A program made the position numbers and the translations under genes. Below the pieces are notes generated by a model. It did not search any database, was not told where the DNA came from, and saw only the letters and a program-made list of their open reading frames with translations. A stretch of 54,442 bases of DNA, filler included, from Jimgerdemannia flammicorona (Eukaryota): NCBI GenBank assembly GCA_003990765.1. It is 3 parts of 3 records of this genome, joined end to end, with 100 filler letters (N's around TTAATTAATTAA, not from the genome) between each part and the next. Parts side by side here need not be neighbours in the genome. Positions count along the whole stretch, not along the records: positions 36,370 to 54,442 come from RBNJ01002313.1; 2 more parts are not named here. The stretch is one strand, 5' to 3'. Positions 8,601-53,402 of the stretch are shown piece by piece; position 1 is the first letter of the stretch; each line of letters opens with the position of its first letter.

Positions 8601-10877
8601 GTCCAATGTTCCCAATGTCCCCCATCCCTTTCCAAACGAGAATACATACTTTCTCCCTCCAAACAGCTGCGTCCCCCCATTCCTTAGTCCAATCCTGTAA
8701 GTCTACATCTGCCTCATAATGAACATCCTGCAGTAAGAAGAGGTCTGCATCCAGTCCCTTAAGTCAACCAAATATATACTTCCTCCTAGCCAACCCCTGT
8801 AGCCCATTAATATTCAATGAGAAAATCCTAGTTGTACTGTTCATATTGAAGAAATGTTGCAATAGAGACCCCAACCTATAATTCCATACTCATCTCATCC
8901 CCCGCAAGATCCAAGCGCCACTCAGCTTCCAATTCACCCTCTGCATTATCCTGAGCATCCAGTGCTCCCAAGATTTTCTGACGTTCCACCCTGTCCACTT
9001 CCTCCATATCAGCCCTGTAGTCCAAGCAGACAGCATGCCACTTCCCCAGTCCCTTCCTCGAATTCCACAAGAAAATTGCTCTATCACTCGCAATCCTTCT
9101 AAGTTCCTCCTCCCACTGATCATCAACCTGATACTCAACTGACTCCAGGAGGACTGCCAGGATCTCATTCCTCATCTTCCTCAGCACCTCCTCCCCCTGT
9201 AGAATCTCCTCCCAATGCTTCTCCTCCAATACCCTGAAGTCCTCACCCCCCAGCTCTTCAGCCACTACCCCTTCCAAGGTCTTCCACATCCACTTCTCCT
9301 CATCCACTGCCTCCACCACCCCCTGAGTGATTTGTCCTCCATCCACCTCAGGGTCCACCAGCATGCTCCTTCTCACCGACTCATCCCACTCCTCATCCAG
9401 CACATCCAGTAGCTCCTCCTCTCCCACTGCTCCATCTGGAACACTATACTGAGAGTGCACACCCTCACCCATTTTGGCATCCACCTCCAAATTGCCCTCC
9501 CTCCCCTCCCCACCTCCAATCTGATCTCTGCCCTGGGCCAACTCTCCCCCCTCAGCCCAGGCACTCTCCTGTGACCCTGCAACTCCCTCCCCTGAGCTTC
9601 CACCAGCCCCACCCCCGCTCAACTTTGCCAACAGCTCCTTCTGGATCCTCCTCCCCTGCATCTTTTCCCAGGCCCCCTTCTCCATCCAGATCCTCTTCCC
9701 ATCCACCTCCCCCACTACTGTCCTGGCCTCAAACTCCTTCCAGGCCAATCTCCTCCTTGCCACTGCCCCTTCTAGGTCCTCCAGAGCCTCCAACAGGTCC
9801 TCCTCCTCCTCCAGAGTCCCCTTCACCCTGGTGACCTTACACTCCACCAGTCCCCACCTCAGTGCCACTGGCCAGTCCCTCAACTTTCCTGTATTCTCCT
9901 TCCCAGCCAGCCTCACCCTGACATCGACATCACCAGTTCTAAGCTCTGTGCCCTCCCAGACCTTGAACCCAACATCCATAATCTTGCCATACTCCTTGAC
10001 TACCTCCACAACCAACTCTCTGGTCCTTTCCTTTGACACAGTCGGGAGGTCCAACACTATTAACTGTACCACTTGGGGGTCCCAGCGCATGTACCGGGCC
10101 ATAGGGACCACAACTCCACCTACCATCACCCCCTTCTCCATGGCTGCCAACAAGGTGTCTTCCTCCTCAAACTCCACCTCAACCCCTTCCTTTCCCCTCA
10201 AGAACTTCACTGACACCGCTCCCTTAGCCTCTTATGCCACCAGCCCCAAAATCATCCTCACCGTCACTGTTAAGTCCCAGAAGCACATCATGACCACAAA
10301 TTCTAATGTTGACTTCTTGAGTAATGGGGCCGACACCATGCCTGTCACCCCATCAGCCAGGTCCCTGGGCCTCATGCCCACTCCAAGTCCCGAATTGCCA
10401 ACCACCATCACATCTGGATTTTTTGCCAGATCCCCAGTCACAGCTCTATCAATAGTCATATCTCCAGCCTCTACTCCAGCCCCTTCCCTAATACCAGAAG
10501 TACCCAGGGGTACACCTCCCTGACCCCCAGCAGTAGCTATTGATGCCTTCCCCAGGCCCAGCCAATCATCTAGCCCAGAAGCCATCTTCCCCATTCTGAC
10601 CTTGTCAGCAAAGGTTGACCTCTCCCCTTCTCTCTGTCTCAGACTGCCCCTCCCTCCACCACCAGGGCCTCGGCTAGCCATTGAGGCCCCTGGTATCCCC
10701 AAACCATCTCCCCTCCTCCCCACCTGCTGCCAGCCAAAGGCGCCATCACCCCCTGGCCTGTATGCTCACCAGTTTGATCATTGCTGTCCATGTTGTTAGT
10801 CGTTGGATACCAAAAATGTTGTAAAAAGTGTTGTCTGAGTCTTGTGTCACCCGAATGTTACTGGTGAGGAAGTGCTC
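5681..10877 (-). mobile_element. LINE copy 2 (same family, more degraded), interrupted near its 3' end by copy 1
   Basis: ORF1 ~8876-10791 and ORF2 fragments 5681-8845 are collinear with copy 1. The 5' leader at 10840-10870 matches 5645-5675. The right boundary is approximate. Confidence 0.92.
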
Positions 10878-13562
10878 ATCTATGGCAAGTACTCCTTCAT
10901 TCTGATGCAGGATCTTAAGAAGTTGTTCTTCTGGGGGAAATTTTTCTCCAATAGTATATATGTGCTTGTTCTGGTCCTTATCTTTCTTGTACTCAAGTTT
11001 GGTAATCTTGATAGCAGTATAGACTCCTCTTCCAGTAGATCCAAAGTCTTGTTCTTCTCTCTTAGTCTTGATGAGTTTGATGACTTTAGTGAACTTAGGC
11101 TTCTTAACTTCATGGATCAGTATCTGGCCAATCCTGTCATACTTCTTGACTTTGAATGGGGTAGTGGGGTTGTGATTCCTGACTATAAGGAAGATCTCAC
11201 CAATATAATTAGGGTTAATAACTTCTCCTTTAACTGCAATTTTGCTCTTAGCCAGACTGCTCCTGGCCTTGATAATTCTGGTATAGTTCTCTGGTAACTT
11301 GACTTCAAATCCAGTACCAAGTAGAGTAATGGTCTGTAGTTTAAGAATAGTATCTTAGATGCTAGTAAGGTCTATTTCTATGGCTCCTTCAGTCTTATAT
11401 TCTGGAATCTTGGCTTTAGGGTAAAACTTCTTAATCTTAAGTATAATGTCTAGTTCTTGTTCCTCCTCATTATCACTATCAGCTTGAAGCTCTGAGGGCT
11501 GGTCACCTTCTTCAGCTTTCTTTTTTTACTTTAGCAGCTTCTTCCTTATACTTTTATTGATAGATTTTTCTAATCTCACTGATATAGGACCAGTAGTCAT
11601 TCAGATATTCAGAGTAGTACATCCTAGCACCATAGGGGTATCTTCCTTGAGGGGCATAGTTATCAATAATCTTGCTCATCTATAAGCTTGGTTATTTTGC
11701 TCTTATTTTTATATACTGAATATATGAAGACTTCTATATCCCCTTCATCTCCTTTCTCTATATCTGGTAGTACTTCTTTGTGGATATTGATAGAGACTTA
11801 TATCTTTCTTTCTCTATAGTTGATCTACATCTACTAGGTATTGAGATCAATGATAACCTTGGCCTTGTGAAGCCATTGGTTACTAATGAGGATATCATAG
11901 TTAGTGGTACTTATAATAATTATATCTACTGAGATGATAGCTCTTCCAATCTTGATAGAGACTTTGCAGATCTTATCTAGGAGTATAGCTTATATATCAT
12001 CTGCTGTAATATAGAAAATTTTGGTAGATTCTTCAATGTCCCAGCCTAGGCAGTCAATTGCCTTCTTGTTTATGAGATATCCTCCAATACTGGTATCAAT
12101 AAAAGTATCAAAGATACAATTTTCAATCTGATATTAGATATAGGCTGAGGTCTTACACTAATCTTCAGATTCTTTATCTGAGTCTTCTCATTCATTATTG
12201 TGAGCTTCTATGATCTTATACTCTTGGTTCTTGAGAGTAGTTGCAAGTCTTTCTCTCAACTGCTGTCTGAAGGTAGAGACTTCTACTAGTTGTTCAAAAG
12301 TAGCATTGACCTTCTGTTCTTTGAGGTTTTTGTTAATATTATACTAGTGGACCTTGGTCTTATATAGCTTCTGTTCTTTCTTACTTTCACTTTCTCTTAA
12401 AACTGGAGTAGTGTCTTCAATGATTTGGTAGGTAGCTTTATCTAACTCCATGTCTTGATCAATCTCCCCAGATCAGGTCTTACTTTGAATAATGATAGTT
12501 GGAGTCTTTTTTGGTCTTCCAACTGGCTTGGTGTTACTCTTCTTATTATAGAGCTTAGACTGGATTCTGATAGCTTCTGTAATATATTCTTCATCATCAG
12601 TATTACCAATCTCCTCAATAACTACAGAATTAGTTTACTTTCTGATTCTGGTAGTATCACTTAGTTGGGCTCTGTGCCTTATTTCAGTCATGCAATTCTT
12701 TGCATAGTGGCCTTCTTCTCCATATTTGAAGCATATAATGGTATACTCCTCTATAGTAGCTGCAAACTTCTGTACTGGTCTTCTATTGGTACTTTGTACT
12801 TCTCTAAAAATATCACTAAGATATGTAGTTATCTTGGCAAACTGCTGGGTGAGTTTCTCTACCAGGTCAGTTTTGGTCATCTTAGAGATAGATAGAGATA
12901 GTTGTCTATTGCTATATAGCTGTGGTAGATATAGTATTGATTGGCTTTGGTGGCTCCATCTTAATACCAGTTATCCTTTCAATTGAGTGTTTAGTAGGAT
13001 GTCAAGTGGTTCAATATCTCTGTACAAAGACCACTTTCTGGTCAAGGGTCAGGGTAGCTGGGATAGATCAGATTTTTAGGGCAATTTCATGATAAACTCC
13101 TTTTAGGAAGGTTGTATTGGCTATCTATTCCTTGAGGGCATTATCATAGCCAGCCAAGACAACCTGGTGGTTGATTTGGATGTAGAATGAGTTGGAGTCT
13201 TTATTGAGTCCTTGGCAGATAGTATTGAGTTGATCTTTGAGAGCTTGCTTGATCTCTTCAGTATAGTATATAGTTCCAAGAAAATTCTTCATATTGGTGA
13301 GTTTGGCTGCACCATTGTCAACAATGGTGGCTATATTGAACTTATCTGGTAGGTCTTCTGAGACTAATAGGTAGAAGGGCCAATTGTTCTTCAATACTGA
13401 GAACTTATATAGTGGCAAATTATTTAAAGTCTTCAATGAAGGTCAGGATTGACTCTTCAGTGATAAATTGATTGAATGTGGGAGAATGTATTTCTATCTT
13501 GTCTTGAATTCTTGCAGAGAGTGACTCTTATAATCAGAGTAGTTGTTATGGTGGTTGTTCAT
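10878..13562 (-). pseudogene. Ty3/Gypsy gag-protease remnant, truncated by LINE copy 2
   Basis: Degenerate zinc knuckle CFKYGEEGHYAKNC (~12690-12735). Degenerate aspartic protease FIDTSIGG...YDILISNQWL (~11870-12110). Many stops. Confidence 0.75.
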
Positions 13563-13601
13563 TTTTCAGCTTAAAAGTGAGGAATCCTAATAGTATCACC
13601 A

Positions 13602-15168
13602 GTCAATAGGCACTAAGTTGCTATATAGTGGGTACTAAGTTCTCCAAGTATATCAGTTTTTCTTCAAGATATATCTCTTAGATCAACTATAAGTTTCTTA
13701 TAAGCAAGTCCTATTGGAGTATCTTTCCAAGGTCTTATGTTCTCAAACTTCTTATCTTTAAACTATTCTGTTGTCTTCTGGATTTACTTGCTTGGAATTA
13801 AGTAGAGGACTAGAACTTCTGTACTCTTGAGTAGTTGGGGACTTAAAGTGTTTGAATACTTGACTACTAACTTTATTTCAAAAGAAATGAGAGGTGTATT
13901 TATATAAAATATAATTCAATGATTGCTAAGTTGTAAATATAAATTTGAGTGTCTGTATAATTGGTTATACAAGATTAGAATACTGGAATAATTTTCAATA
14001 GTTATATAAGATCAGAATACCAGAAGAATTTCAACAGTTATACAAAGAACTCAGAGCAGAATATTCAGAATCCTGAAAACTTCATCTTCATCACTGTCAT
14101 CAAGACTAGAGGTCAGAGACAGGATGTCTTCAAAGAAAATGGGGTTAGCAAATAAATCATCTATTTTATGTATTTCATATGTATATATCACATGTTTCAT
14201 ATATATCAATCAGCAGGATGATGTCATCACTGATAATAACATTATATTTGGTAGTGGCAGGGGAAGCAAAGAGATCAAGGGCTCTCTAATCTATAATATA
14301 TTTCTCCACAAAGTAGGGGACAAAGGTGGGATCTTAAGGGGGTCAAACCTGGATAATGGAGCCTTGGAATATTAAGATTAATCCTTACAGATATGATCTG
14401 AATTATTCTTGTGAATGGGATTCTAGAACTCTTCTACCTTATTACTTTTAAGAGTAATGGGCTTCTATAGCCACTATGGCCTCCATTGTATCTATATAAT
14501 GGGCTGACAATTTCTTGAAGTCTGAGACTCTGGTATACTCCAGGTTGGAGATTGACCAAGTTGTATGCCTGAAGACCTAATAGATCTTTTTGGCTATCCT
14601 CAATTTATATATATCTATAGAGGTAGCATCTTATATCTTTTGGGGACAGGCTTGAGGGAATTCCTAGTAGAGGAGGTTTTCTTTTTCATATTTCTACCAC
14701 ATCTAAAGGCATTTGATAGCAATAGTGATCCTTGTTTCTATTTCACAGCAGTAGAGGATAAAGTGGTAGAGGTCACCAGTACTCAGGTTGAGGCTAGGAG
14801 TCCTTCTGGTATAGGTCCTTATGGCTCTCCTGATATCTTAGAATATTCTTTCTTGAACTGAGAAGTCTTGGTAGTTCCTGGACCTCAAGGTTTGGTAGAT
14901 GGTAGGCATTTTATTTATAGTAAGTCTTTGAACTATTTTGGAATTTTATGAGTCTTATTTGAGTTGCTGCTGCTATGGTTTCTTAGTTCTTCTTTTATAT
15001 TCCTTGAGATGTCTATCTTATGGTTGTGATAACTCATAGTTGGTCATCATTACTTATCTTATAGCCTGGGTGAGTTATGTTATATGATCTTCTTATACTC
15101 TGATCTGGTAACTTATAAGGAAAGACTATCTTCTGTAATGATATCACTATTCTGAGATCATCATTACA
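13602..15168 (-). mobile_element. LTR family 2, 5' LTR (~1.57 kb) of the Gypsy element at left
   Basis: Starts TGTAA on minus at 15168. TATAAATA at ~13897-13904 and AATAAA at 13872-13877. A PBS-like TGGTGATAC follows at ~13593-13601, then gag. Homologous to 37150-38444. Confidence 0.75.
14051..14909 (-). pseudogene. U3-embedded accessory ORF of LTR family 2 (degraded copy)
   Basis: Collinear with the 37400-38203 ORF, with the same ATG context and stop context. Contains stops and at least one frameshift. Confidence 0.7.
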
Positions 15169-17770: not shown

Positions 17771-18085
17771 AAGCTTGGTTCTCACGGCTGATAGGCGGTA
17801 CTCTAGAGGGAATAGTACTATTCGTCCGTGGTGGGCAAATCTTGCTGGGTTGCGATTTCTTCTTCATCATATGTATCTCTCCTCAAAAGGGAGAAGCACC
17901 GGCCAAGAGGTGAGGGGGTAGAAAAGTGGCCAGTCATCTTCAATAACATTCTCCAACCCTTGAACAGCTTGAATGCGGACAGAGGACTGGTAGACTCTCT
18001 GTTGCTCCTCTTCTTCTTCTGAAGGCTCGTCAGTTTCAGTGTCAGAGGGGGTTTCCTCAGGGGCAGGGTCTTGGAGTTCTTGGGT

Positions 18086-30179: not shown

Positions 30180-30210
<31 letters not shown>

Positions 30211-30639: not shown

Positions 30640-30690
30640 TGCCAAGCCACACCACCCTCTTTGCTCTACCTCTCTTACCAATCCAGCAAA

Positions 30691-31750: not shown

Positions 31751-32228
31751 CAGAAGCGCGCGTGGGTGATGGGTTTGGCTGTGAATGGGTTCGAGTTGGG
31801 AATTAGAGATGCCTTGGGATATATACCTAAAAAAAACGCTAGTGTGGCTTTGGCAGTTGCGCGAAACATTTTAAATTTCGTTAAAGCTTCTTTTGACTTG
31901 GGATCAAGTGCTTGGCACGGGGGAATGTTGAATAGCTCAGATTGTTTGAAAGCTACTACCATGCGACAATGCTAGCACATCGGCATCTTCTACGAGGAAC
32001 TTTTGTTTCATTCTAAGAATCTATGTTTTAACACAGAAGACATGAAGGGGATAGAGAGAAAAATAGGAAAAAGAGAAAAAAAGAAAAAAAAAAGGTACGA
32101 GTTGGCCCGCCTTCAAAGTGTTCGAATTGAACTTTTTTTTTCCTGATGAGTCGCGTAGCAGTTGCCCATATTACATGAAATGAAAGAAAAAGGCCCAAAC
32201 CCCACGAGCAGCACAAACCTGACCCCCA

Positions 32229-35200: not shown

Positions 35201-35662
35201 TCTTGACCACGGCATCGGTCGTGTGGGTCAGCCGCGCGGAGACTTCCTGACTGAGGAGCTGTAGCTTGGTCACGAGCATGGTAGCGTGCTGGTCGGTGGG
35301 AAAGGCGGTGGTGGTGGTGGTGGTGGTGGTCGAGGTAGTGGGAGAGCGCGCGTACACGTCGACGAAGGTCTTGACGTCCTGAGTGGTGTCGACCAGGCCA
35401 GCCAGCAAGGCGTCATTCGCGTCGGGGTCCTCGCCACCAGCAGTTTCGGCGGTGGGGACGCCGGCGGTTGGACGGTTCTGGTGGAGTGCGACGGAGGAGG
35501 AGGAGCTCCCGAGGGCGAGCGAGGCGTTGATCCAATCCTTGATAACAAAGCTTGGGTCGAGGAATGCGGCGAAGTCGACGTTGCCTGCGGACGAGAAGGA
35601 ACGCTGCAATGATGGGGGGGGGGGTCGAACCTAATGTGAGAAGTTGGGTCGTCTCGAGACAT
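32229..35662 (-). CDS. COG7: Conserved oligomeric Golgi complex subunit 7, apparently single-exon; first ATG (35662) is out of frame by 1 nt in a G11 run
   Basis: DFAAFLDPSFVIKDWIN, LVTKLQLLSQEV...NMPRVLYD, FSLSPSPYITSVGEQLLTLP and QLATDIGYLTNVLAAL match the COG7 family. Confidence 0.88.
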
Positions 35663-35785
35663 GTCTGCTATAGCATTGCGGGTTCGGAGGTCGAAAAGCA
35701 CCAAAAGCTCAGAAAAAGCACGAAAAAGCACCAAAGGCTCAGAAAAAGCAAAACGCGGTCAAACGCGGGGCTAATTACGGAGGGG

Positions 35786-35797
35786 GGTGACGTCACC
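35786..35797. promoter_or_regulatory. CRE/ATF-type palindrome in the COG7-Mis18 bidirectional promoter
   Basis: Perfect 12-bp palindrome GGTGACGTCACC, with two AAACGCG motifs at ~35751-35767. Confidence 0.5.
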
Positions 35798-35913
35798 ATC
35801 ACATCACTATAGCTAGTGGCTTAATAGAATACTATTAACTTTCTATGGCTTGCTGGACAACACTTTTGATTAGACCACTCTCTCGCGTTGTTCACTCTCA
35901 TTCCACCTTGCAA

Positions 35914-36232
35914 ATGGACCCTCCTCCTCCCGCAACCCCTCCCACCGAACCCGCTGAAAACACCCAGCCCTCCACTGAACCCCAGGAGATCGACGCCCCC
36001 CTCGTCTTCCAGTGCGCCAGCTGTAGCACTATCGTCGCAGACTCTTTCGCCTGGTTCGAGTCACAACAGCTCCTCAAGACAATCACCCTGTATGGTGAGC
36101 TTTTCAAGTATCAACCTGTAACTCTGGTGCTCCAGTTCTAATATTTGCTATCGCATTTTGCCCAGCGCAACCGAGCAACGTGACCGTCAGCACCGAACTC
36201 GCCTTCTCAAGCGCCGGTGCTGATCTTGGAAG
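35914..36232 (+). CDS. MIS18: Mis18-like Yippee-domain centromere protein, 5' part only (exons 35914-36094, 36166-36232), cut by the gap
   Basis: PLVFQCASCSTIVADSFAW matches the Mis18 N-terminal CxxC zinc motif. One GT-AG intron, and a second donor at 36233. Confidence 0.75.
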
Positions 36233-36269
36233 GTAACGTCCTCGCGTGCGTTTTTTTTTTTTTACAAAA

Positions 36270-36369
36270 NNNNNNNNNNNNNNNNNNNNNNNNNNNNNNN
36301 NNNNNNNNNNNNNTTAATTAATTAANNNNNNNNNNNNNNNNNNNNNNNNNNNNNNNNNNNNNNNNNNNN
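36270..36369. other. Artificial contig spacer (N run with TTAATTAATTAA)
   Basis: Same design as 18086-18185. Confidence 0.97.
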
Positions 36370-37147
36370 AATGCCAAAGGGGTCCAGGCCAGGATCTGTG
36401 GCCTAGTGGTTGGCAAGGAGTTGGAATTGGTGAGGAGTGGGACTGGCATGGGGTTTGGACCTGGAGTGCCACAGTGAAAAATTGGATGCCGCCGAAGTAT
36501 TAGGTAGTCTGGTGGCATGTACTGAGGAGGAATGTGATGCTTAACTTCTGCTCAGGACACCTTGTTGTAGGGAGCTGCTTTGACTGTGAGGAGTGCCATA
36601 ATGTCGGACAGGAAGGGGGATTGGTACAGATGCTGGAACATTGGCTAGGGGAGTGTAAGGTGTTGGGAGACTTTTGGCAGGCTATTGGAGACCGCTTGGG
36701 GGTAAGGTGTAGGGGTGATGATGTACAGGAGAGGTGGGAGGACCTGAGGGATTGATTGATAGGAGGGGATAGGGAAGAGTGGATTACTCTAGGCTGGACA
36801 TTAGCTATTTGGGTTGGGCTGGCCGGCCACTGGCTATTTGTATTTGAGGAGGAGAAGTGACTGAGCTTGGGGAGCCAGTTAGCAAGGTGGCAGTTCCTTA
36901 TGGAGGATACCTTGACAGGCTGGTGGCTTGGTTGGGGGCTGCAGGGGGGTCAGAGGCACCACTTAATGGTGAAAATTTGTAGTCAGAGTGGTGGGAGAGT
37001 TGGAGTTATTGGTGAGAGAGTGGTCTTTATATGTGATGAGGTGGGGTGGGGCCACCCGATGGGGATCGGATAGGGGGTGGTGATATTGTATACTTATTCA
37101 TAGACTGGTAATAAAGACAGAGTCCAAGGGACTATAAAAAAAAAAAG
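36370..37147 (+). mobile_element. LINE copy 3, 3' end with poly(A) tail
   Basis: CEECHNVGQEGG...EHWLGEC is homologous to the copy 1 ORF2 C-terminus. AATAAA at ~37110 and an A run at 37136-37147. Confidence 0.9.
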
Positions 37148-37194
37148 ATATAAAGCTAAATATAAATTCCAGTAACTAAAACTACTAAGTTCCA

Positions 37195-37392
37195 GGACTG
37201 GCATTATTTAGTGTTACATCAAAATACCAGTGCTGGAATAATTTCGTGTCACCTCAGAATACCGGTGCTGGTATTATCCAGTGTTATATAAGAATACTGG
37301 TGCTGGCATTATCCAGTGTTACATGAGAATACTGGTGCTGGCATTATCTAGTGTTACATGAGAATACCAGTGCTGGCATTATCTAGTATAAC
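37195..37392. repeat. ~35-bp tandem array, ~5.5 copies, inside LTR family 2 U3
   Basis: Unit GAATACTGGTGCTGGCATTATCCAGTGTTACATGA. Confidence 0.9.
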
Positions 37393-37399
37393 AAAGAAC

Positions 37400-38203
37400 T
37401 TAGAGCAGAAAGTTCAGGATTATGGGGGCTTCATCATCATCATCACTGAAGGAGATGAGATCCGTGAATTCATCGTTTTCATGTACTTCGATGTTATGCA
37501 GGATGATGTCATTGATGACATCATCACGTTCAGCTGTGGTGGAAAAATCAGGGACAAGGTCTGGAGCTCTCCAGTCTATGAGATTCTCTTCAACAAAATA
37601 AGGAACAAATGTGGGGTCTTGGGGAGATCTAACCCAGATGCTTGGGCCTTGGAATACTGAGATCAATCCTTGCAGGAATTGATCTGGGTTGTCCTGAAGG
37701 ATAGGGTGCCAGAAGTCTTCTACTTCTTCGCTGTTGAGGGTGATAGTGGACTGGGCTTCTGTAGCCACCCTGACTTCTAGTGCATTGATATGGTAGGATG
37801 ATAGGTCTCTGAAATCTGAGACTCTAACATACTCCAAGTTGGGGATCGACTATGGTGCATGCCTGAAGATCTGATGGATCTTCCTAGCTATCCTTGTTTC
37901 GTGTATATCCATGGGAGTGGCATCTTGTAGCTCTTGGGTACTGGCCTGTGGGAACTCCCGGCAGAGGAGGTTTCCTATTTTGTACTCCTACCATATTTGG
38001 AGGCATTCGGTAGCAATGGTGATCCTTGTTTCCATTTTGTAGTGGTATAGAATAAAGTGATAAGGGTCTGCAGTACTCAGGTTGACACTAGGAGTCCTTC
38101 TTAAGTGGGTCCTTATGGCTCTTCTGATGTCTTGGAACATCCTTTACTCAACCAAGATACCTTGGTGATTTCTTGACCTTGAGGTTTGGCAGGCAGCAGG
38201 CAT
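37400..38203 (-). pseudogene. U3-embedded accessory ORF of LTR family 2 (267 codons plus stop, three internal stops, no frameshift)
   Basis: AAACAAAATG start and TATAAAAG ~80 bp upstream. Reads MPAACQTS...EYKIGNLL...IARKIHQIF...SIPNLEYVRVSDF...DDDDEAPIILNFLL*. Confidence 0.78.
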
Positions 38204-38444
38204 TTTGTTTATGGTAAGTCTTTGAGCTATTTTGGGATTGGTGGTTCTGTTGGTTGCTGCTACTGCAGTTCCTTGATCCTTCTTTTATATTCTTCAGGAT
38301 GGTCATGCTGTGGTCACAATGACTTACAGTTGGTCATCATTGCTCATCTCATATGCCATATGATCTTCTTGTGCTCCGATCTGGAGGCTTATAAGAAAAG
38401 GCTGTCTCCTGTACTGATGTCATCATTCTGGGGTCACTGTTACA

Positions 38445-40510
38445 ATATATATAAATCATATCCAGCTACCTTTTGGCTTTCTTTGATTGAGACTATAACT
38501 ATTATCCTTAACTTGACAAAGTTTAGTATCTTGGTACTCAGATTATTGAGGTGATGTAAAGTAGTAACTGTGGCTTATATTGTAGTATAGGATCTTCAGT
38601 TAGAGAAAATACTGGTCATATATCCTGTTTTTTGGCAATAGAAGCATACTTTGCTTCTTCAAAGTTCATTTCTTTCTCCTTTCGTGAGTTTCTTAAAGAT
38701 ACTCAGCTGGGTGGGTTCAGAATTTTAGAATGTCCTAGAGGTAGATATAGAGGGAGCAAGATGCTTCATACTTGGGTTCTTCTTTCTTGCTCTAAGATTT
38801 TTCCTTGTTTTAGAATTGGTTTCAAGGCAGAATTGTTCTAGCTGTTAGGATTCACTTGATTATAGTTTTGATTATAGCTAGATACTATTGTTAGTAATTA
38901 TAACCTACTAGGTATTCTTGTTCTCATATCTTTCTTGTGAGCCATTCTGGTAGTATATTGAATAAATTGCCTGCTCTTGTACCATTCCATGTTTCATCAT
39001 TGGCAATATATCCTAGACCAATAATATTCAGAAGTGACTTGAGTTTTGTATAGAAGGTCTTGAATTTCTCTTTACTATCTATATTAAATTTGAGATTGTG
39101 GAGTTTTACTTGGAATTCAGTGATCAGAGTTTCATTATAATATTGAGAAATTATGAGTTTTTTGAGCCTAGGGGCTGCAGAGTGATCTCTATACCCAGGG
39201 GTATTATTTATTATATTTTGGACAACAACTATAGGTCAGATATTCCATATAAGAGGTTTTTAGGAAGAGTTTGCCATCATTCTTCAGCAGGTCTCTGGAA
39301 GAATATAACAACTTGATGGATATAAGCTGTAAAAATAGCTAATAGTTGTTTGATAGTATGGTCTTGGTTATTTGTTTAGAGGTAGTCAGTAACTTATTCA
39401 TTGGTCTATTGATTGGCTTCAAAGTTAGTATCTATTATACTAAGGAAGCTTTGAACTTCTTGTGCAGTACTGTTAAAGATAGATAAACTCAGGCTCTTTA
39501 TTAGTTGGGTCTGTTCTGCTAGGACAGTAATAGTTGCTACCATTATAGCTATCTGGGCCATGAGGTCTAAGTTTGCTAGTTTGCTATATTGTTTACTAGA
39601 GGTAGTTAAACTACTGATAGTAGAGTTACTGGTATAACTTGAGGTACTGATATAGAGTGTAATAGTGTTCTTTGAGTCTATATGAGTTACTGGAGTAACT
39701 GTTGTCTGGTATAAGGACTTGATAAATAACTATATATTGTTTTATAGGTATATTTTATTCTGAGGAAGATATATCTTTTTTGGCAGTATATCTATAATAA
39801 AATTTAGTGAGATACTCCTCCTCTTCTTCATTTTGGTCTATATATAGTTGGGTTTATTCTGTATCAAAGTAGATGGTATCAGTTGTATATTAGATTTCAG
39901 ATGGACTTAAATCAAAAGCTGGTTGAGATTCTGCTTCAGATTTAGGTAAAGTTGTAGCTGAGTCTACTTCTGGTTCAGAGTCTGGTTATTGACAAAGGGT
40001 TTCTCTCTCTTCTTCTTTGAGTATATAGTGGGTCTTGTAATTCTGAAAATAGTGGTATAAGGTAGTCTTGGTCCTGGTAAAGTGATAGCTGGTAGAGTTG
40101 AGCTACTTAGCTATAGTGGCTTAGGCTTCATAAGGAACTAAGACTAGGAAAATAGCTACTGGTTATCCTAGGTTACATAGGTCTGTTGAGCTTATAAAAC
40201 ACTTATTGAGAAGAGTAAAAAAAGCTTCTATAAGACCTTCTTCATCTTAACTTATAGAGTAGAGCAAAGAGTTTGGTGAATAGAGTTTTATCTATCTTCT
40301 AATTTAATTGGAGTACTTTTTTATATATATGAAAGCTTGTCCCACTTATTATAGGTGTAATGGTCTAATTGTTCTTATATATCAGGTTCAATTTGCTTTA
40401 GATTGTCAGTAGTTGGGCTTAATACTGATTTGTATAAATTTCTATAGAGATTTGTAGCTAGGTAAAAAAGTATCTTGAAGTAGAATTGGATCATAAACTA
40501 CTGCTATCCA
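38445..40510 (-). pseudogene. Ty3/Gypsy internal region (gag remnant) downstream of LTR family 1 copy A
   Basis: Gag-like EFQVKLHNLKF...FYTKLKSLL (~38950-39120) and zinc knuckle CFYCQKTGY (~38620-38650). PBS-like TGG 2 nt after the LTR end at 40510. Confidence 0.65.
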
Positions 40511-40512
40511 GT

Positions 40513-43156
40513 TTTAAGAGAGTACTTTGTTAGAGTACTGTTATGTAGTTCTGAAAGAGGTTTTAGAAATTTCTAGATATTTAATGACTATTTTCTTAAA
40601 ATCAAAACCAATTTCATATAGAGTACATCCTCTATACTAATTGATTTTAAGAGTAAGTTGATATCTCAACCAAAGTCCCTTTTTGGACTTATTCTGGATA
40701 TTCAGAATATTTTATATTTCAGAAAGTTTAAGAAACTAAGACCAGCTTAGTTGAATCAGTGTATCACTACAGAAAATACCCAATTAGGAAATTTTGGGAT
40801 CTAGCCAGAAGTGAGATCTAATATAGTACAGATCCACCTAAGAGCAGCCCATGAGTTATTATATAGGTTTAATTACTATTTATAATATTACTATTAGTTA
40901 ATACTAGGAGTAGTATGTGAAGGGATATTTGTATAGGAAAGTATTCTTGACTTATTCATCTGTATTCTTGTCTGTATTTTTGTCTAAGTTTCTGAGATCT
41001 GAAAGAGTAGTTATTTATACTAATGGAAGACTATCTGGACTATATTAGTACTTAGTATTTTGATGAGTCAGAATACAGTCATATAATACAAGTGTGAACT
41101 AAAATATCAAGAGATCAACTGACTGCTGAGTCAGGATATAGTTATGTAGTATAAGGCTAATTTAACTATACTAATAACCACTACACTATTTAAAGATTTA
41201 GACACTATCTGGATATTCTTCAATAAGATCACCATTGATAACATCATCTCTGATAAAGTAGTCATCTAAGAAGAGTGGTTTTTAGATTACATCTCTCTGT
41301 TCATTTATATAATAATATGTTAGAACTATGTTATTGTTTTACAGGATGACATCATCTATTTCATATGCTAGATATGGTATTAGTGGGCAAAGAAGGAATA
41401 TATTATCTTCTCTTTCATCAGATTTGCTATCTATATATCTTTAGTAGATTACAGTGCTATGTATTGCAGATAGTACTCTGAACAAGTTGATCTGGATCAG
41501 AATCAAATCCCATCCAGATTAGCTCAGATGGGATTCAAATCTCATCTGGATTGATTCAAATCAACTATTGTTTTGATTTCCAAATTAGATAATTAAATGT
41601 TTATATCAATAACGTGATGAATAATCATCCAATTTTGATGATCTTGGTGTCATTTGAAAGCCCTTAAGAAGGCCTTTCTAACAATATCAAGACCTTGGAA
41701 ATTAGATTATGTCTTGCCGAGTTATCAAGGAAAATGTCTGACTTACCAATTTTGGAAATTTCTTCAAAAGAATGCTTTCCTTAATAGCTTGGCAACACAT
41801 AATCTGATTTTAATATTCTTGGTATCATTAGAAAAGCGTTATTACAGGCTTTCAAATGACACCAAGATCATCAAAATTAGATGATTATTTATTAAGTTAT
41901 TAATGTAAACATTTAATTATCTAATTTGGAAATCAAAACAATGGTTAATTTGAATTAATCTGAATGGAATTTGAATCCCATATAAGTTGATCTGGATGGG
42001 ATTCAATCTGAATCTCATCTGAATCCAATACAGATTAAATTGATTCATTAAGAGCAATAGTTACAGAGTTATAATATACTGATAGCTATTATTCATTTGG
42101 CTTATACTTGGGAAGTGAGATTGTTGGTTCTATCTTGAGGGTTGACTGAAGGTATAGCTTGTGTTCTCCAGTCTCTTCATTATAGTTGAAGTAATTAGGT
42201 ATGAATGTAGATTGATACTCATACCAGTGGTCATTGTCTCATAGGTCTTGTATATAATTATGAACTATTATAAGTTCATTGGTAGGATTAGGAGAGTGAT
42301 CAGAACTGGTAGGAATCTTTGACTAGAGGTCATATCAGTATCAGAGGGATCATTGTCTTCTGCTTTTTCATTATTGAACTAGATTATATTATAGATATCT
42401 TTCATAATATATCTGACTTTAAGTATTTACAGAATGTGGTCATTTGGGTATAAGAAGAGTCTGTCTATAGTTTGAGCATACTCAATATACTTGTTGTTGA
42501 GTACTTGTATCATATCATCAATTTGGCTATAGATTAGAGTGGTAATCATTTCAGTAGTAGTAACTCAGAGACAGAGAATAAAGATACTGTACTTATAAAA
42601 GAGTTCTCAGTGTTTGCAGATGATAATTTTCTGATATTGAGATATTTTAATAATATCTATATATAGTGATAATTAACCATATCTTCCAGGAGGTAGCTGA
42701 TCTGATAATAGCTTAAGATTTGACTGATTCCATAGGCCTCACTAAGCATATTTAGAATATTCCATTAGGCTTCTACAAAATAGAGAGGTGCTAGGCTATG
42801 GATATTTATGAGAGATAGAGAAGCTGTGACTTTATTGATAATAGTATTCCAAATGTCAGTTCAGATGCAGTTGTAGATTTCAGTAGTCATATCTGGATAT
42901 ATATTTGAGAGTTATAGTTATTTTTTTAATTTGTTGTGATTATCTATTTTGAGATACTGTATATTCAGAATATATGTTTTTAGTCCTAATTGGTAAGATC
43001 TCATTTTTATAAATCTTATATTCTGTAACTTTAAGTTAACTCAACTTTGTGATCTATAACTTTAGTTTGACTCAACTTCATAATCTGATAGGTAATTTCT
43101 AAATTTGTTCTGAGGGTGATAGGTAATTTTGGTGACTTAGAGAATATATACTTATA
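40513..43156 (-). mobile_element. LTR family 1 copy A (5' LTR), interrupted by a MITE; degraded accessory ORF at 41198-42890
   Basis: Collinear with 44590-46650 along its length. Termini are mutated versions of TGTAAG...CTTACA. Confidence 0.85.
41462..42059. mobile_element. Foldback/MITE (~600 bp) with ~270-bp inverted arms
   Basis: TATTGC...GCAATA ends (possible TA duplication). TTTTGATGATCTTGGTGTCATTTGAAAG pairs with CTTTCAAATGACACCAAGATCATCAAAA. Absent from the homologous position in LTR copy B. Confidence 0.85.
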
Positions 43157-44172
43157 AAGTTAGTCTATTACATATCTCCTAGAGAAATTGATATACCCAA
43201 AAATGAGATTAATAAACTTCTCAAAAAAGAATTCATTAGACCTAGTATATCACTATATGATATATCAGGTCTCTTTATTATCAAGAAAGGAAGAGACCTC
43301 TAAATATATATTGATTACCAAGATCTCAATAAACAGACTATCAAGAACTGTTGCCCATTATCTCAAAATAATGAAATCTTTAATAGACTTACAAATCCAC
43401 AATTTATGAGTTATTTTGATCAATAAAATAGTTACTGGAAAATTATTATAAAAAAAGAAGATAACTACAAAACTGTCTTCTGAACTCACTATGAATATTT
43501 CAAGTTTTTAGTTATATTCTTTAGCTTAACTAATATTCCTATAATCTTCTAGATACTGATAAATACTATCCTATATCTATACCTAGACAAAATTGTTATT
43601 GTCTATATTGATTGACATTCTAGAAATATTTTGAATATCTTGAACTAGTACTACTTAAACTCTTCAAAAACTGACTCTATATAAAAACTTAGCAAATATG
43701 AATTCATTCTGTAGATAATTCAATTTTTTGAATATATTATCACTTTTAATAAAATCAAAGTAGACTCTAGCAAAATCTCTGCAATTAAGAAATGACTCAG
43801 ACCTAAGAAGCTATAAGACCTTCAATTATTCCTTAGATTAGCAAACTATTAGAGACAATTTTTTGTAAACTTTGCTAAAATCACTATCACTCTTATCTAA
43901 CTGACTAAGTATAGTAAAAAAGAATGACAACTCTGGCCTACAAAGTAAGAAAAAGACTTTAATAATCTTGTTAAATGGGTAACTAAAAAAGATACAACCT
44001 TTTAAGCTTTGAAAGATACTTTGATAATTACTCTTATATTTTAATAGCAAATTCTACTCTACTATATGAAATTAAAACTAATGTCTCTGACCTAGTTCTT
44101 GAAGCAAGAAGGACACTCTATGGCCTACCATTCTTATAAGTTTAATAATAATAAAATTAACTATACTATCTA
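43157..44172 (+). pseudogene. Ty3/Gypsy reverse transcriptase-RNase H fragment, heavily transition-mutated
   Basis: EFIRPSIS...YIDYQDLNKQTIKN..PL, SYWKI, YKTVF, FLVIFFSLTNIP, DKIVIVYID and IKTNVSD correspond to Gypsy FIRPS, DYRxLN, GYWQ, KTAF, PFGLTNAP, VYLDD and TDAS. Confidence 0.85.
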
Positions 44173-44410
44173 TATAAGCATACAACCTCTAAGTCACCAA
44201 AATAACATATTACTCTCAGAACAAATTCAGAAATCATATGCCAGATCATAAAGCTAAGTCAAACTGAAGTTATAGATTACAAAGCTAAGTCAAACTGAAG
44301 TTACAGATCACAAAGCTAAGTCAACTCAAAGTCACAAAATACAAGATTTATAAAAACAGATCTTACCAATTAGAACTGAAAGTATATATACTGAATATAC
44401 AGACATATTA
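44173..44410 (+). mobile_element. LTR family 1 copy C, 5' part
   Basis: TATAAGCATACAACCTC matches the reverse complement of the copy B end. Contains three ~31-bp AAAGCTAAGTCAAACTGAAG repeats. Confidence 0.85.
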
Positions 44411-44589
44411 TAATAGATAATCTTTCTCTGATAACATTCAGGTTATACAAACTTCTGGCAATACTTAAGAGAGAATAGGTACTAGCAATATGATAATCAA
44501 TGAGCATTCCAAGGTATATGCTAGACAGAGCAGCTCTAGTATATTTGACTAGAGAGAAGTCATGGCTTGGGAGAAAGTATGAGGGGCTT

Positions 44590-46650
44590 TATAAGAGGGT
44601 TGCTTTTTAGGGTAACCGTTACGTAGTTCTGGAAGAGTTTTCTGGAAGTTCTGGATATTCTGGAAGACCGTTTTCTTATGGTCAAGATCAATTTCATATG
44701 GAGTACGTCCTCTATGCTTATTGATTTCAAGATTGGGTTAACATCTCAACCAAAGTCCTTTTTTGGACTAGTTCTGGATGTTCAGGATTTTCCATATTTC
44801 AGGAAGTTCAAGAAACTAAGACCAGCTTAGTTGAATTGGCATATCGCTACAGACAATACCCAATGAGGAAATTTCGTGATGGGGTTAGGAGTAGAACCTA
44901 ACAGAGAGCGGATTTACTTAAGAGTGGTTTGTGAGTTATGGAATAGGTTTATTTGCTATTCATGATATTACTATACTAGGAGTATTGGTGTGAAGGGGTA
45001 TTGTGGGGAAGTATTCAGAAATGTTCTTGTATGTTCGAGTCTGAGATTCTGAGGTCTGTGGGAGGGGGTATTTATACTAGTGAGGGGTTATCTGGGCTAT
45101 GCTGGATATGGATGTGGCACTAAGTGCCTTGCTGAGTTGGAATGCAGTCACGTAGTACAAGTATGATCTGACATGTCAAGAGATCATCTGACTGCTGAGT
45201 CAGTTCACAGTCATGTCATATAAGACTAATCTAACTATACTATGACTGCTAGGCTATTTATGGTTTAGGCACTGTCTGAGTAGTCTTTGATGACATCACC
45301 ATCAATTGCATCATCTCTGATGAAGTAGTCATCTAGGAATAATAGTTCATGGATTACTTCTCCTTGTTCGCTGAGGTAATAGTACATTGGAACTTCATCT
45401 CTGTCCTACAGGATAGCATCGTCTGTCTCGTAGGCTGGATAAGGTGTTGGTGGGCGAAGGATGGGTGTATTGTCTTCACTTTCATCGGATTCACTGTCTG
45501 CGTACCTTCTATAGGTTACAGTACTATGAGTTGCAGGATTGTAGTAAGCTGGTGGCTGTGGTTCATGTCACTTGTACTCAGGTGGTAGAGTGGTTGGTTC
45601 AATCTCGAGGGTTGTCTGGAGGTACAGGTTGTGTTCTCCAGTCTCTTCATTATAGTTGAAGTAGTCAGGGGTGAATGCGGGTTAGTATTCATGCCAGTGG
45701 TCATTGTCCCAATAAGTCTCATATGTGGTTATGAACTGTTGTAAGTTCATCAGTAAGATTGGCGGTATGATCAGGGTTGGCAGAGATCCTTGGCTAGAGG
45801 TCATGTCGGTATCAGAGGGATCGTTGTCTTCTGCTTCGTCTTCATCAAACTGGATTATATCGTAGACGTCCTTCATAGTATATCCGACTTGGGGCATTTG
45901 CAGGATATGGTCATCAGGGTGTGGTAAGGTTCTGTCTGTGGTCTGGACATACTTGAGGTACTTGTGGTTGAGTTCTTATATTATGTCATCGATTTGGCCA
46001 TAGGACAGAGTAGCAACCATTTCGCTGGTAGTAACTCAGAGGTGGGGAATAATAGTGCTGTACTCGTAGAAGAGTTCTTGATGTTTGCGGGTGATGAGCT
46101 TCTGGTGTTGAGACATCTGGGTAATGTCTGTATCTTGGTGGTGTTCGAGCATGTCTTCCAGGAGGTGGCCAATCTGGTAGTAGCTTGAGATTTGTCTGAT
46201 TTGGTGGGCCTCGCTAAGCATGTTCAGAGCATTCCATCAGGCTTCCATAAAGTAGAGAGGTGCCAGGCTATGGATATTCATGAGGGGCAGAGGGGGTGTG
46301 GCTTGGTTGACAATGGCATTCCAAATGTCAGCGCGGATATGGTTGTAGATCTCAGTGGTCATGTTTGTGTATTTGGAAGTTGTGGTTGTTGTTTGTTTTG
46401 GTTCTCTGATTCGATGTGTCTTGGTGCTCGGTATATATGCATTTGGTCCTGATTGATAAGATTCTGTTTGTGTAAATCTTGTGTTCCATGACTTTGTATT
46501 GACTCAGCTTTGTGCACTGTGACTTCGGTTTGACTTAGCTTCATGATCAAGCAGGTGATTTCCAGATTTGTTCAGAGGTCATGTGTGATTTCAGTGGCTT
46601 GTTCAGAGGGTAATGTGTAATTTCAGTGGCTTGGAGGTTGTGCACTTACA
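44590..46650 (-). mobile_element. LTR family 1 copy B, solo LTR (2061 bp) with 5-bp TSD
   Basis: Termini TATAAG (mutated TGTAAG)...CTTACA. GGCTT at 44585-44589 and 46651-46655. TATAAATA at 45069-45076 and AATAAA at 44948-44953 on minus. Confidence 0.9.
45265..46362 (-). pseudogene. U3-embedded accessory ORF of LTR family 1 (365 codons plus stop, ~6 internal stops, no frameshift)
   Basis: ACAAACATG start and TATATA ~70 bp upstream. Reads MTTEIYNHIRADIW...YYQIGHLL...ITRKHQELF...IIPHL followed by an acidic, Pro/Tyr-rich tail. Confidence 0.8.
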
Positions 46651-49600: not shown

Positions 49601-52183
49601 TCAAGTTTTTATCATGGCTTCTGCAGATGAGGAGAGTATGGCAGCAGTGGGAGGGGGTTTTGGATGAGGCTGGGGAGTTGGTTGTTGAGATACTGGAGAT
49701 TCTGGACTAGTTGAGCAGATGGTGGGGATATTTGTAGAGCAAGGAGGATGGAGGGGTGGTGCTGAACATTGACAGGAACTTGAAGGAATAGCACCCTGAT
49801 CAGGCAGTGGGCTTTGGTGACCTTGGTACTGCTGTCCAAGGGGAAGAGATTTGGCAGGTTTTGATGACAACAAGCTCTGAGACTACGTCAAGAGAGAATG
49901 GCTTACAGTGGTATTTTTGGAAGTAGATGGCATAAGTTGAGTTGATCCTAGAGAAAATGATAGCAATGTACAATAAAGTGATTGGCTCAAGAGTATAGAT
50001 TGGGGGGCAGATCTTGGGTCTTATGTCTCTACTGTTTAAGAATAAGAGGAGGATAGAGGAGTGAAAGAACTGAATACTGATCATGCTTCTAGATATGGAT
50101 CACAAACTGGTCATGAAGATACTGGTGGCTAGGCTATAAGGAATAGTGCAACAAGTTCTGGAGACTGAGCAGAGAGAATTCATAAGGAGACAGCTGATTA
50201 GAGATGGGACAGCCTTGGTGTATGGTGTTATTGAGGGAGCTCACACTGCTGGGGTGGATGACTGGCTGGTTTTCTTAGATCAAGAGAAGGCCTATAACAG
50301 AGTCTGATGAGTGTGGTTAGAAAGGGTTCTAAAGTACATTGGGGTCCCTCTTGGGGTCTGGCAGGCCTTGGTTGGTCTGCTAGTAGGGTATTAGACAGTA
50401 ATTATAATAAATAGACACAGAGGGATTTCATTCCCTTTGGGCAGAGGAGTGCTGCAGAGGGGTCTACTGTCACTTATTCTATATGTGTTATCTCTGGAGT
50501 CTCTTTTGGATAGAATATGGTGAAAGATGGGAGGGTTGGATATTCTGAAGGTTAATTGGAAGGTGGGGGCCTTTACCAACAATATGATAGTTGGGCAGAG
50601 GTTAGCTGAGGATGTTGCAGCCCTGAAAGAAGCAGTTGAGTAATATGAGAGATACTTAGATACTAAGCTCAACTGGTATAAGTGTGAGGCTTTGGTGTTG
50701 AGAGGAGAGATAGTAGGTGGGGATGTGATTATTGTCCCTATAGAAGAGGCTGTTTACTAACTAGAGATTAACTTTTCAGTATATAGCTCCTTCCCACCAT
50801 ATGAGTGGTGAGAGTAGTAGTTGGCAGAGTGGGGAAGAACTCTCTTTGGGTGGAGTAATTGCCATATATCTCTAGCAGAAAGGATGACAGTATTGAATAT
50901 ATACTGGTTATCTAAGCTATGGTATCTGAAATACCACTTGGACTTTCTGGCATAGGTGGTCAAGTAATTTTTGAAGATGGCCAGAACCTGAATATGGGTA
51001 GAGCAATGGGGTCAGATTGGTTAGAAGGTATTGACCTGGCCAGTAGACCAGGGAGACCTGGGTCTGATAGATTTTCCCAAGTATCTTTATTGCTTGAGTG
51101 CATGGTAGCCAAAGCATGCAAGTGAGTTGAGGGGTGGAGAGTGGATTCCCCTCATGCAGAGGGTATGGGAGGTCCAGTTCTCCCCCCATAATGTGACTGG
51201 GGATCTTCTTCTCTAGTGGCTTAGGAGGAGAGTCAGAGGATATATTATAGGGGATTCTAGTAGGAGGTGGTTGATGGGTGCACCATATTGGTCTCTGATA
51301 GAGGGGTGATGAGGGGGAGGAGGAATAGAGATCTCAGATGTGGAGGTGGAACTACCTTCTGTTGGGCAGGGCACCAGTGGATGACTTCTGCTTAGAGGAT
51401 AGCATAGAGTGCTTTTAGAAATATGAGAGAGATCTGTGGCCTAAGGCATAGCAGGGGGGTAGGGATTGATAAGGAGTGAGAGTGGAATAGCATTTGGCAG
51501 TAGGGCAAGCAGGTGGCAAGATAGATTTCCCCCAAGTTCTGGATAGCATAATTCTATGATATAATGTAATTTTGAACTACCAGATGAGTCACTTGGTGGA
51601 AGGAGGTACTCAGGAGTATGAGGAGTGTCTGAATGTCAGGCAGGAGAGAGAAGTGGTACAGACTTCTGAATATTGACTAGGGGAGTATAAGGTGATGAGT
51701 AACTTTTGGAGAGAGATTGAGATACAGCTAAGGGTACACCCACCAGAGTTAGTGGTAAGAGGGAGATGGGGTGACCTCTGGAGGAGGCTGGTGGGGGAGT
51801 TGAGAGATGAGTGATTGATATTAGGATGGGTGCTAGTGATTTGGGTTAGACTTGTGGGACATTGGCTATATGTATTTAAGAAGGATCAATGGTTGACATT
51901 AGGAGTGAGAGTAGCTAGATGAGAGTAGTTGATGATAAATATATTGAATAAGTAGTGGAGGAGTGGAAGTGCTGATGGAGGATATTAGAGATAATTGGTG
52001 GAGACAATCTGTAGGAAGAGTGGGGGGATGATTGGAATAGCAGGGGGATTAGCAGTATTTCAGAGAAATGGTGAGTGTGAGAGGGAGTTTCCAAGTGAGA
52101 TTAGGTGAGGAGCTCATCTGTATTAGTATATCATAGATGGTTTGGTAAAAAAAGTAAAAGAAAAAAAAAAAAAAAAAAAAAAA

Positions 52184-53402
52184 AGACATATTAAAATAAA
52201 GAACTATAATAAACCAGACAAATAAACTCTCAAACATATACCCAGTTATGACCACTGAAATCTACAACTACATCCATACTGATATTTGGAATACTGTTAT
52301 CAATAAAGCCACTGCTCCTCTACTCCTTATGAATATCTATAGCCTAGCACCCTCCTATTTTATAGAAGTCTGAAGAAATACTCTGAACATACTTAGTAAG
52401 ACCTACTGAATTAGACAAATATTAAGCTACTCTTAGATTGACCACCTTCTGGAAGATATAATTAGCCACAACCATAATATAGATATTATTGAAATGTCTC
52501 AACACCAGAAACTCATTACTTGTAAATACTAAGAACTCTTTTATAAGTATAGTATCTTTATTCCTTACCTCCAAGTTACTACTGCTGAAATGGTTGCCAC
52601 TCTAATCTATGGACAAATTGATACATAGTATAAGAACTCAACTACAAGTATATTGAATACCCCCAAACTATAGACAGACCCTTCCTACACTCTAATGACT
52701 ACATCCTGCAAATACCTCAAGTTGAATATACTGTAAAGGATAACTATGATATAATTCAGTTTGATAATAATAAAGCAAAAGACAATGACTCCTCTGATGC
52801 TGATATAATCTTCAGCCAAAGATTTCTGCTAATACTAATTACTCTAATAATCTTACTAATAAACTTATAATAGTTTATAACTATATATGAGACTTATTGA
52901 GATAATGATCACTAGTATAAGTATCAATCTTCATTTTTGTCTAATTATCTCAACTATAATGAAGAGACCAGAGAATACAACCTGTATCTCCAGACAACTC
53001 TCAAGATCAAACCAATAACCTCACCTCCTGCATATGAGTGAAATGAACTACAATCACCAGTTTACTACAACTTTGCAACTCACAGCACCATTACCTACTA
53101 AAGGTATGCTGACAGTGAATCTAATAAAATATACCTCTCCTTTATCCATCAATACTATATCCAGTATATATAATATTTGACACTATCCTATAAAATAGTG
53201 ATATGGTTCCAATATACTATTATATATATAAATGAACAGAGAGACATAATCCAAGAATCACTCTTTCTAGATAACTACTTCATCAGAGATAATATTATTG
53301 ATGGTGACCTTATTGAAGAATATCCAAATAATATCTAAATCTATAAATAGCTTAGCAGTTATTAGTATAGTTAGATTAGCCTTATACTATATATGTAACT
53401 AT
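52184..53402 (+). mobile_element. LTR family 1 copy C, 3' part; degraded accessory ORF at 52248-53338
   Basis: Reverse-complement homolog of ~45210-46420. Resumes exactly at the LINE TSD. Confidence 0.85.

Follow-up and report, generated by a model that had tools for sequence, protein, structure and literature searches.

Does the decayed reading frame on the minus strand at 37400-38203 belong to a gene housed within a long terminal repeat (LTR), and is it a true homolog of the frame found in a second, distinct LTR family of the same DNA? We addressed both questions using the window, i.e., the whole stretch of 54,442 bases that was analysed, which consists of three contigs (A, B and C) joined by N44-TTAATTAATTAA-N44 linkers at 18086-18185 and 36270-36369. 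Contigs A and C are retroelement mosaics in which LINE units occur together with several LTR-type repeats. Our overall reading, to which we give a probability of about 70%, is that the frame is a dead copy of a selected accessory gene located in the U3 of a dUTPase-bearing element, that the versions of this gene in the two families are homologous, and that its product would act as a factor of the element.

The family-2 LTR and its reading frame

The family-2 ORF at 37400-38203 comprises 267 codons plus a stop and is broken by in-frame stops at codons 20, 72 and 118; the gene of which it is a copy encodes roughly 250-320 amino acids. The following features define its two copies in the window:

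37087..38444, minus strand: family-2 LTR copy A, solo-like, 1.36 kb, with the ORF wholly inside
38282..38291, minus strand: TATA-like sequence AATATAAAAG, about 80 nt upstream of the ATG
37198..37387, no strand: 35-bp tandem repeat, 5.4 copies, between the copy-A ORF stop and the LTR end
13860..15168, minus strand: family-2 LTR copy B, in the 5'-LTR position, starting with TGTAAT; 3' end approximate
13964-14045: tandem repeat of copy B, 37-bp unit, 2.2 copies
10749..13800, minus strand: interior of the copy-B element with gag, protease and dUTPase, truncated by the LINE array at about 10868

Copies A and B are alike from exactly TGTAA(C/T), at 38444 and 15168, over about 1.3 kb, with a nucleotide identity of 72%, and the likeness spans the ORF, the tandem repeats, the TATA and the AATAAA. 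The elements of copy A follow each other in the order TGTAAC, TATA, ORF, tandem repeats, AATAAG and ACA. Its 5' terminus is TGTAAC (TGTAACAG), and its 3' terminus is GAATAAGTATACA, with GTATACA, ending in ...AATAAGTATACA. The second TATA, of the GTATAAATACCCC type, is decayed in this copy, which ends at 37087, a few bases past AATAAG, with unrelated DNA beyond. Copy B (14992-15001) likewise has the TATA-like box upstream of the ATG, and so does L001, at its start. L001 is a JGI metagenome contig of 1345 nt that contains an intact family-2 ORF of 323 codons. In L001, the ORF stop is followed by GTATAAATACCCC, AATAAA, ...CA and TTGGTATTTATCT.

Copy A is flanked by ATAT at both ends. All three TGTAA termini with a readable upstream flank adjoin (TA)n, which fits a target preference; since every readable upstream flank is (TA)n, the 4-bp ATAT duplication is weak evidence.

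In copy B, the ORF starts at 14909, reaches about 14100 and contains stops as well as a late frameshift; tblastn of the intact relative P0004 recovers it with an E-value of 5e-69. Its TATA and AATAAA signals are located at 13893-13906 and 13871-13879, directly upstream of gag, protease and dUTPase. The gag CCHC knuckle at 12638-12970 matches zf-CCHC at E 0.0062, below the Pfam cut-off, while the protease matches RVP_2 at E 2.8e-4 (21.1 bits against a cut-off of 20.3) and the dUTPase at 10749-11354 (minus strand) matches its Pfam family at E 3.3e-16. No stop interrupts the 202 codons of the dUTPase frame, although many stops interrupt the gag and protease that immediately precede it in this element. 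No reverse transcriptase of the ORF-bearing elements was found within the window.

Related LTRs in the window

Three further types of LTR were localised, two of which carry a version of the ORF:

44864..46650, minus strand: family-1 LTR copy 2, the best copy, starting with TGTAAG; TATA-like sequence at 46431-46439
45265..46362, minus strand: family-1 ORF copy 2, one frame of about 364 codons with several in-frame stops
40784..43156, minus strand: family-1 LTR copy 1, with its ORF at 41201-42893 in four frame pieces
52180..53402, plus strand: family-1 LTR copy 3, with its ORF at 52248-53335 in two frames
17990..18082, minus strand: C-terminal end of a third ORF subtype (P0013-like), truncated by the contig end
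53403..53800, plus strand: family-4 LTR, related and ORF-less, inserted into family-1 copy 3; end approximate

The family-1 ORF sits at the same LTR position as the family-2 ORF. In copy 2 of family 1, a second TATA, GTATAAATACCCCC, is located at 45064-45077 and AATAAA at 44946-44953, followed by CA and then TTGGGTATTG at 44854-44865. The 3' boundary of this copy is uncertain and may reach about 44466-44589, and copies 1 and 2 are alike for about 300 nt beyond the proposed 3' end. The ORF of copy 1 includes about 590 extra bp at 41469-42059, and the copy continues into a decayed gag-like stretch down to about 38460. Copy 3 is cut at its 5' side by the poly(A) end of a LINE and at its 3' side by the family-4 LTR. 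For family 1, assignment as an LTR is argued from analogy; for family 2, it is better argued. Between copies 2 and 1, at 44162-44422, the 5' part of the family-1 LTR is present as inverted fragments.

The third subtype was identified by tblastn of P0013 (77% identity over 31 amino acids, E 3e-4). The remainder of this LTR, down to about 16043, comprises tandem repeats that directly follow the ORF remnant at the contig edge, AATAAA and AATTGGATAAATTTATCT. This LTR type is GC-rich, and its repeats at 16803-17775 include a 210-bp unit present 2.6 times at 97% identity as well as 54/136-bp units. The family-4 LTR starts with TGTAACAG, carries 19-bp repeats, GTATAAATTACCCC and GTGAATAAAACC, and is too short for the ORF. 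Its 19-bp repeats are palindrome-like (TGTCC...GGACA type). In the stretch 53403-54442 (plus strand), this LTR is followed by GC-rich sequence and by an open frame at 54104-54442 that runs off the window end and may be the gag of a fourth element.

A GTATAAATACCCC-type TATA followed by AATAAA is found in L001, family-2 copy B, copies 1 and 2 of family 1, and family 4, and tandem repeats lie between the ORF and the TATA in both family-2 copies and in the family-3 LTR. Past AATAAA...CA, copy B, L001 and family 3 have a common leader of the TTGG(T/A)...TTTATCT type; a TTGGTATT-type motif follows the CA in L001, family 3 and family 1, and copy B has a similar leader. Because at least three LTR families carry a version of the ORF and a fourth, related LTR carries none, we consider the gene to be an optional accessory module and not a part of gag-pol.

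Location of the ORF with respect to the LTR

TG...CA termini with short inverted ends were found in the form of TGTAAC...GTATACA in family-2 copy A, and their 5' parts are TGTAAT in copy B, TGTAAG in family 1 and TGTAACAG in family 4. The TATA and the poly(A) signal follow the order expected of U3-R-U5, and copy B, which occupies the 5' position, is succeeded by a putative primer-binding region and the gag-protease-dUTPase block. The window includes no complete element with two LTRs; consequently, the placement of the ORF inside the LTR rests on one solo-like copy together with these signals.

Sequences related to these elements were present in a single listed sequencing run, X1, a soil metagenome (share 0.09), in which 5933 short contigs are at least 80% alike to the region 36900-46700. 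The element families are abundant and diverse in this sample. No RNA run was among those listed. The differences between the run and the window are mostly transitions (A>G 185, G>A 182, C>T 111 and T>C 109). Across the 5' end of copy A, the depth of this run drops from 985 to 161. For family 1, the depths, which are crude, are 1208-2228 past the proposed 3' end and about 1050 over the ORF; the depth remains high down to about 44421, and by this crude measure the LTR does not stand at the 2:1 to the interior that would be expected.

These depths bear on the alternative that best survives, namely that the ORF is not in the LTR at all and instead, as a leader gene ("ORF0"), follows a short 5' LTR and precedes gag, so that the repeat would be the 5' part of the element. 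Three of the four copies in which the downstream sequence is readable (family-2 copy B, family-1 copy 1 and family 3) do continue into leader or gag-like sequence, no 3' LTR is seen in the window, read depth is the same for the family-1 leader and the ORF, and the related family-4 LTR, devoid of an ORF, is only about 400 bp long. Nevertheless, in all families a TGTAA terminus lies upstream of the ORF and a TATA and AATAAA pair downstream of it, whereas a leader gene would be expected after AATAAA and the primer-binding region. Additionally, copy A stops a few bases after AATAAG, at ...ACA, without the leader of copy B and L001. We therefore regard a leader gene as unlikely and, based on the termini, the absence of the leader, the drop in depth and, as weak evidence, the ATAT flanks, we read copy A as a solo-like LTR with the ORF wholly in its U3.

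Homology between the proteins of families 1 and 2

The original prediction had proposed the relationship from short peptides, which are indeed encoded at 37964-37999 and 37835-37924 in family 2 and at 46159-46194 and 46039-46128 in family 1, all on the minus strand. The reported identities of 7/12 and 11/30 were correctly counted, and 5 of 500 shuffles reached 11 identities in their best ungapped 30-mer. The layout that it described, TG - TATA - ORF - TATA - AATAAA, is likewise present in both families. Its statement that the two LTRs lack nucleotide similarity agrees with blastn and tblastx comparisons between the families (best E-values of 0.041 and 0.46, respectively), but not with a 13-nt core promoter, GTATAAATACCCC, that both have in common.

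When the window ORFs were compared by BLASTP with X at the stop codons, 25 of 88 positions were identical (30.0 bits, E 3e-5), and none of 1000 shuffles reached the Smith-Waterman score. Profile comparison by hhalign of the window copies gave an E-value of 0.059; 4 of 200 column shuffles did equally well, and in this first run a reversed control nearly equalled the true alignment (19.1 against 20.6). Upon inclusion of more diverged family-2 members, the E-value was 0.01. The intact P0004 aligned to family 1 at E 0.6, and further tests of some pairs against family 1 were also weak (P 0.64 and 0.039 for P0004, 0.27 and 0.62 for P0013, and 0.1 for P0005).

Clearer results were obtained with intact sequences from outside the window. 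BLASTP of the L001 ORF against P0014, an intact family-1 N-terminal domain, gave 24/104 identities (32.7 bits, E 1e-6). The family-2 HMM scored P0014 at 23.5 bits and its reversed sequence at -0.6; none of 1000 shuffles of P0014 reached 23.5 bits (894 were scored, the best at 7.0). Including P0014 in the hhalign comparison yielded an E-value of 7.8e-4 over 122 columns. When the family-2 HMM was run against all six frames of the window, its best match other than family 2 itself was the family-1 ORF (12.7 bits, with the best decoy at -1.3), in the right frame and register, and all significant alignments between the two families are in one register. The reciprocal window search with the family-1 HMM, built from near-identical copies, does not detect family 2, and the family-2 profile retrieved no family-1 protein at E <= 0.001 in a search of 1.84 billion sequence clusters.

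The match of the intact family-1 domain P0014 to family 2 settles the question: the sequence comparisons solidly support homology of families 1 and 2, over the N-terminal 105-125 residues or so only, in what is probably a mostly helical domain. The proposal that a second LTR family encodes a homolog is thus upheld for this domain (E 1e-6, 23.5 bits) and not for the whole length of the protein. The C-terminal halves, both strongly acidic, have diverged past recognition, with only a 10-column acidic match (E 0.054), so that of the shared acidic tail originally described a likeness of composition is what stands. The gag regions of the family-1 and family-2 elements gave nothing in tblastx, and their Smith-Waterman score of 59 compares with 44.9 +/- 5.8 for shuffles, the maximum of which was 67.

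That the two ORFs are unrelated, their likeness being chance or convergence between helical, low-complexity orphan proteins, would account for the silence of tblastx, for the first profile tests and their reversed control, for the several non-significant pairs and for C-terminal halves that fail to align. Against this stand the intact sequences, with their BLASTP E-value of 1e-6 and an HMM score that shuffles never approached, the identical register of every significant alignment, the same position in the LTR and the common core promoter. Unrelatedness is therefore very improbable and is largely refuted already.

Intact relatives and selection

Six public proteins of 161-271 amino acids, 85-58% identical to the ORF at 37400-38203, were retrieved with E-values from 2e-130 to 4e-38, and a full HMMER scan of 1.84 billion clusters with the family-2 profile returned five cluster representatives, all of this type. 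For family-1 copy 2, the relatives were P0014, 85% identical over the N-terminal 128 amino acids, and P0009, 64% identical over the C-terminal 247. Word-based searches gave 6, 1 and 2 proteins, all from JGI or ENA metagenome sources; the relatives are named at most "hypothetical protein", and the libraries searched carry no taxonomy. ORFs of transposable elements are frequently omitted from annotated proteomes. Within these libraries, the searches gave no support to the suggested resemblance to an expanded family of uncharacterised Glomeromycota proteins. Regarding the genomic context of the relatives, no locus was found in viral contigs or in genome contigs and two were found in metagenome contigs, of at most 1.6 kb; one of these, L002, is a chance match of 15 residues.

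In ten pairwise comparisons by the Nei-Gojobori method, dN/dS ranged from 0.11 to 0.34, with bootstrap upper bounds of at most 0.59. In the five comparisons that had frame-shifted controls, dN/dS was 0.11-0.23 in the true frame and 0.60-1.50 in the shifted ones. Among codon positions, the third differed most often, followed by the first and then the second. These ratios and the codon-position pattern indicate that, during diversification of the families, the two ORFs evolved as protein-coding genes, and the copies in the window, all of them dead, decayed after the families had spread. Since both ORFs were under purifying selection, a selected accessory-gene family of LTR retroelements, as had been surmised for this locus, is the best reading.

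It is also very improbable that the elements acquired the gene from a host by transduction, or that it belongs to a host gene family whose members just happen to be close to LTRs. LTR elements do capture host sequences, according to an excerpt of PMC7264820, and the protein has no retroelement-type domain, but the position of the ORF is constant across three LTR families and all copies seen, which the same excerpt treats as the mark of conserved additional ORFs and not of transduction, and no host-like relatives were found among the five clusters detected in 1.84 billion.

Protein features and proposed role

No Pfam family matched the window ORFs or seven intact relatives at E <= 1, and a sequence-profile search of the PDB gave no match at the same threshold. 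AlphaFold2 models of P0004 and P0014 were both too poor (pLDDT of 50.9 from 10 sequences and 49.9 from 12 sequences, respectively), and with these models Foldseek found nothing in the PDB at E <= 0.001. The helices of the two models are collinear, which is not independent evidence because the second alignment contained family 2. In the ESM Atlas, the first matches had scores of 0.83 and 0.93, shared few features with the queries and pointed to no family; some unrelated-looking clusters were listed for both queries, which is a lead at most.

The highest hydropathy over 19 residues is at most 1.05, indicating no membrane or hydrophobic segment. The first 40 residues have a net charge of +1 to +8 in five of the six family-2 proteins. 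For the last 60 residues, the net charge is -6 to -16. Family 2 accordingly combines a basic N-terminus with a strongly acidic remainder. From its position and composition, we infer a soluble, probably nuclear, trans-acting factor of the element. An activator acting on the repeats and promoter of its own LTR would be an example of such a role, albeit a doubtful one.

The ORF could be transcribed as the 3'-terminal gene of the element RNA, which would include the U3 of the 3' LTR. Alternatively, it could be transcribed from its own upstream TATA, with transcripts ending at the LTR poly(A) signal. Tentatively, the LTR might then be a self-contained cassette, with its own TATA about 60-90 nt before the start codon of the ORF and with the poly(A) signal of the LTR, that encodes a trans-acting regulator of the element family; we hold this to be possible, with the odds somewhat against it. 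If so, every LTR, solo LTRs included, could express a regulator of the element family. U3-encoded accessory proteins would then form a family beyond the vertebrate retroviruses, diversified among at least three LTR families, and the gene would have been lost from, or never gained by, the fourth.

Comparison with known systems

Accessory genes separate "complex" retroviruses from simple retrotransposons. To our knowledge, genes wholly within an LTR are very rare and are best known from one mouse retrovirus. The sag gene of MMTV, or "LTR ORF", lies wholly inside the U3 of the LTR and encodes a membrane glycoprotein. Like sag, the ORF described here is a gene of a few hundred codons in U3, upstream of the promoter of the genomic RNA; each LTR copy carries it, and reverse transcription itself does not require it. 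The likeness is positional only: no Pfam family matched the seven intact proteins at E <= 1, the window protein is devoid of membrane segments, and in this setting, which is not that of a vertebrate retrovirus, acting as a superantigen would be meaningless. The regulatory and accessory genes tas/bel of foamy viruses and nef of HIV, located at the 3' end, also reach into U3; of their products, Tas activates its own LTR and has an acidic tail. Unlike the present ORF, which lies entirely within the LTR, these genes merely overlap U3. Similarity to env, GDSL or DEDDy types was not detected with Pfam, and the ORF differs from the env-like ORF3 of retroviruses and errantiviruses in having no hydrophobic segment and in being located in the LTR instead of after pol.

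Among LTR retrotransposons, the Vesta, Juno and TelKA elements of bdelloid rotifers carry diverse extra ORFs according to PMC5408684, which also places a dUTPase between protease and RT in bdelloid LTR elements, certain retroviruses and basidiomycete elements. In the plant elements Grande, RIRE2 and Retand, the additional ORFs are mostly located between pol and the 3' LTR (excerpt of PMC7264820). The ORF3 and additional ORFs of bdelloids and plants resemble the present gene in being family-specific, placed beside gag-pol, found in most copies and often functionally obscure, and the copy-B element shares a dUTPase with the bdelloid lineages; in contrast to their location between pol and the 3' LTR, our ORF is within the LTR. 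Among the matches listed in the open-access literature, no LTR retrotransposon with a gene inside its LTR was found, and "LTR ORF" referred mostly to MMTV.

The present case is one of a selected orphan family in the U3 of several diverged LTR families, in a non-vertebrate group of dUTPase-bearing retroelements, and suggests that LTR retrotransposons also evolve regulatory or host-interaction genes in U3. Given intact copies and a host, a small soluble protein with a defined promoter and defined repeats would be a tractable system. For annotators, a note of caution follows: LTR consensus sequences taken as "non-coding" may conceal genes.

Other features of the window

The remaining features are as follows:

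1-10868: two LINE units, head to tail, with a 5.2-kb period and 73% identity, encoding an endonuclease (Exo_endo_phos) and an RT (RVT_1)
46846-51710: third LINE copy, 65% identical
18186-36269: contig B, GC-rich, with host-like genes
19124-28282, plus strand: uninterrupted ORF of 3052 codons, spectraplakin-like, with an N-terminal CH (calponin-homology) and a C-terminal GAS2 domain
32229-35630, minus strand: COG7 gene, 1133 codons, uninterrupted

The coding strand of the LINEs is unusually G-rich and C-poor, with a GC skew of about 0.4-0.55, and their GC content is 53-57%; that of the adjoining LTRs is 28-35%. Family-1 copies in opposite orientations lie on either side of the LINE at 46846-51710, both with their 5' ends towards it. 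Within the window, contig B has no repeat in common with contigs A and C; it is therefore hardly informative on the organism carrying the repeats, and may belong to a different one. Its uninterrupted 3052-codon and COG7 frames point to an intron-poor eukaryote as the source of contig B.
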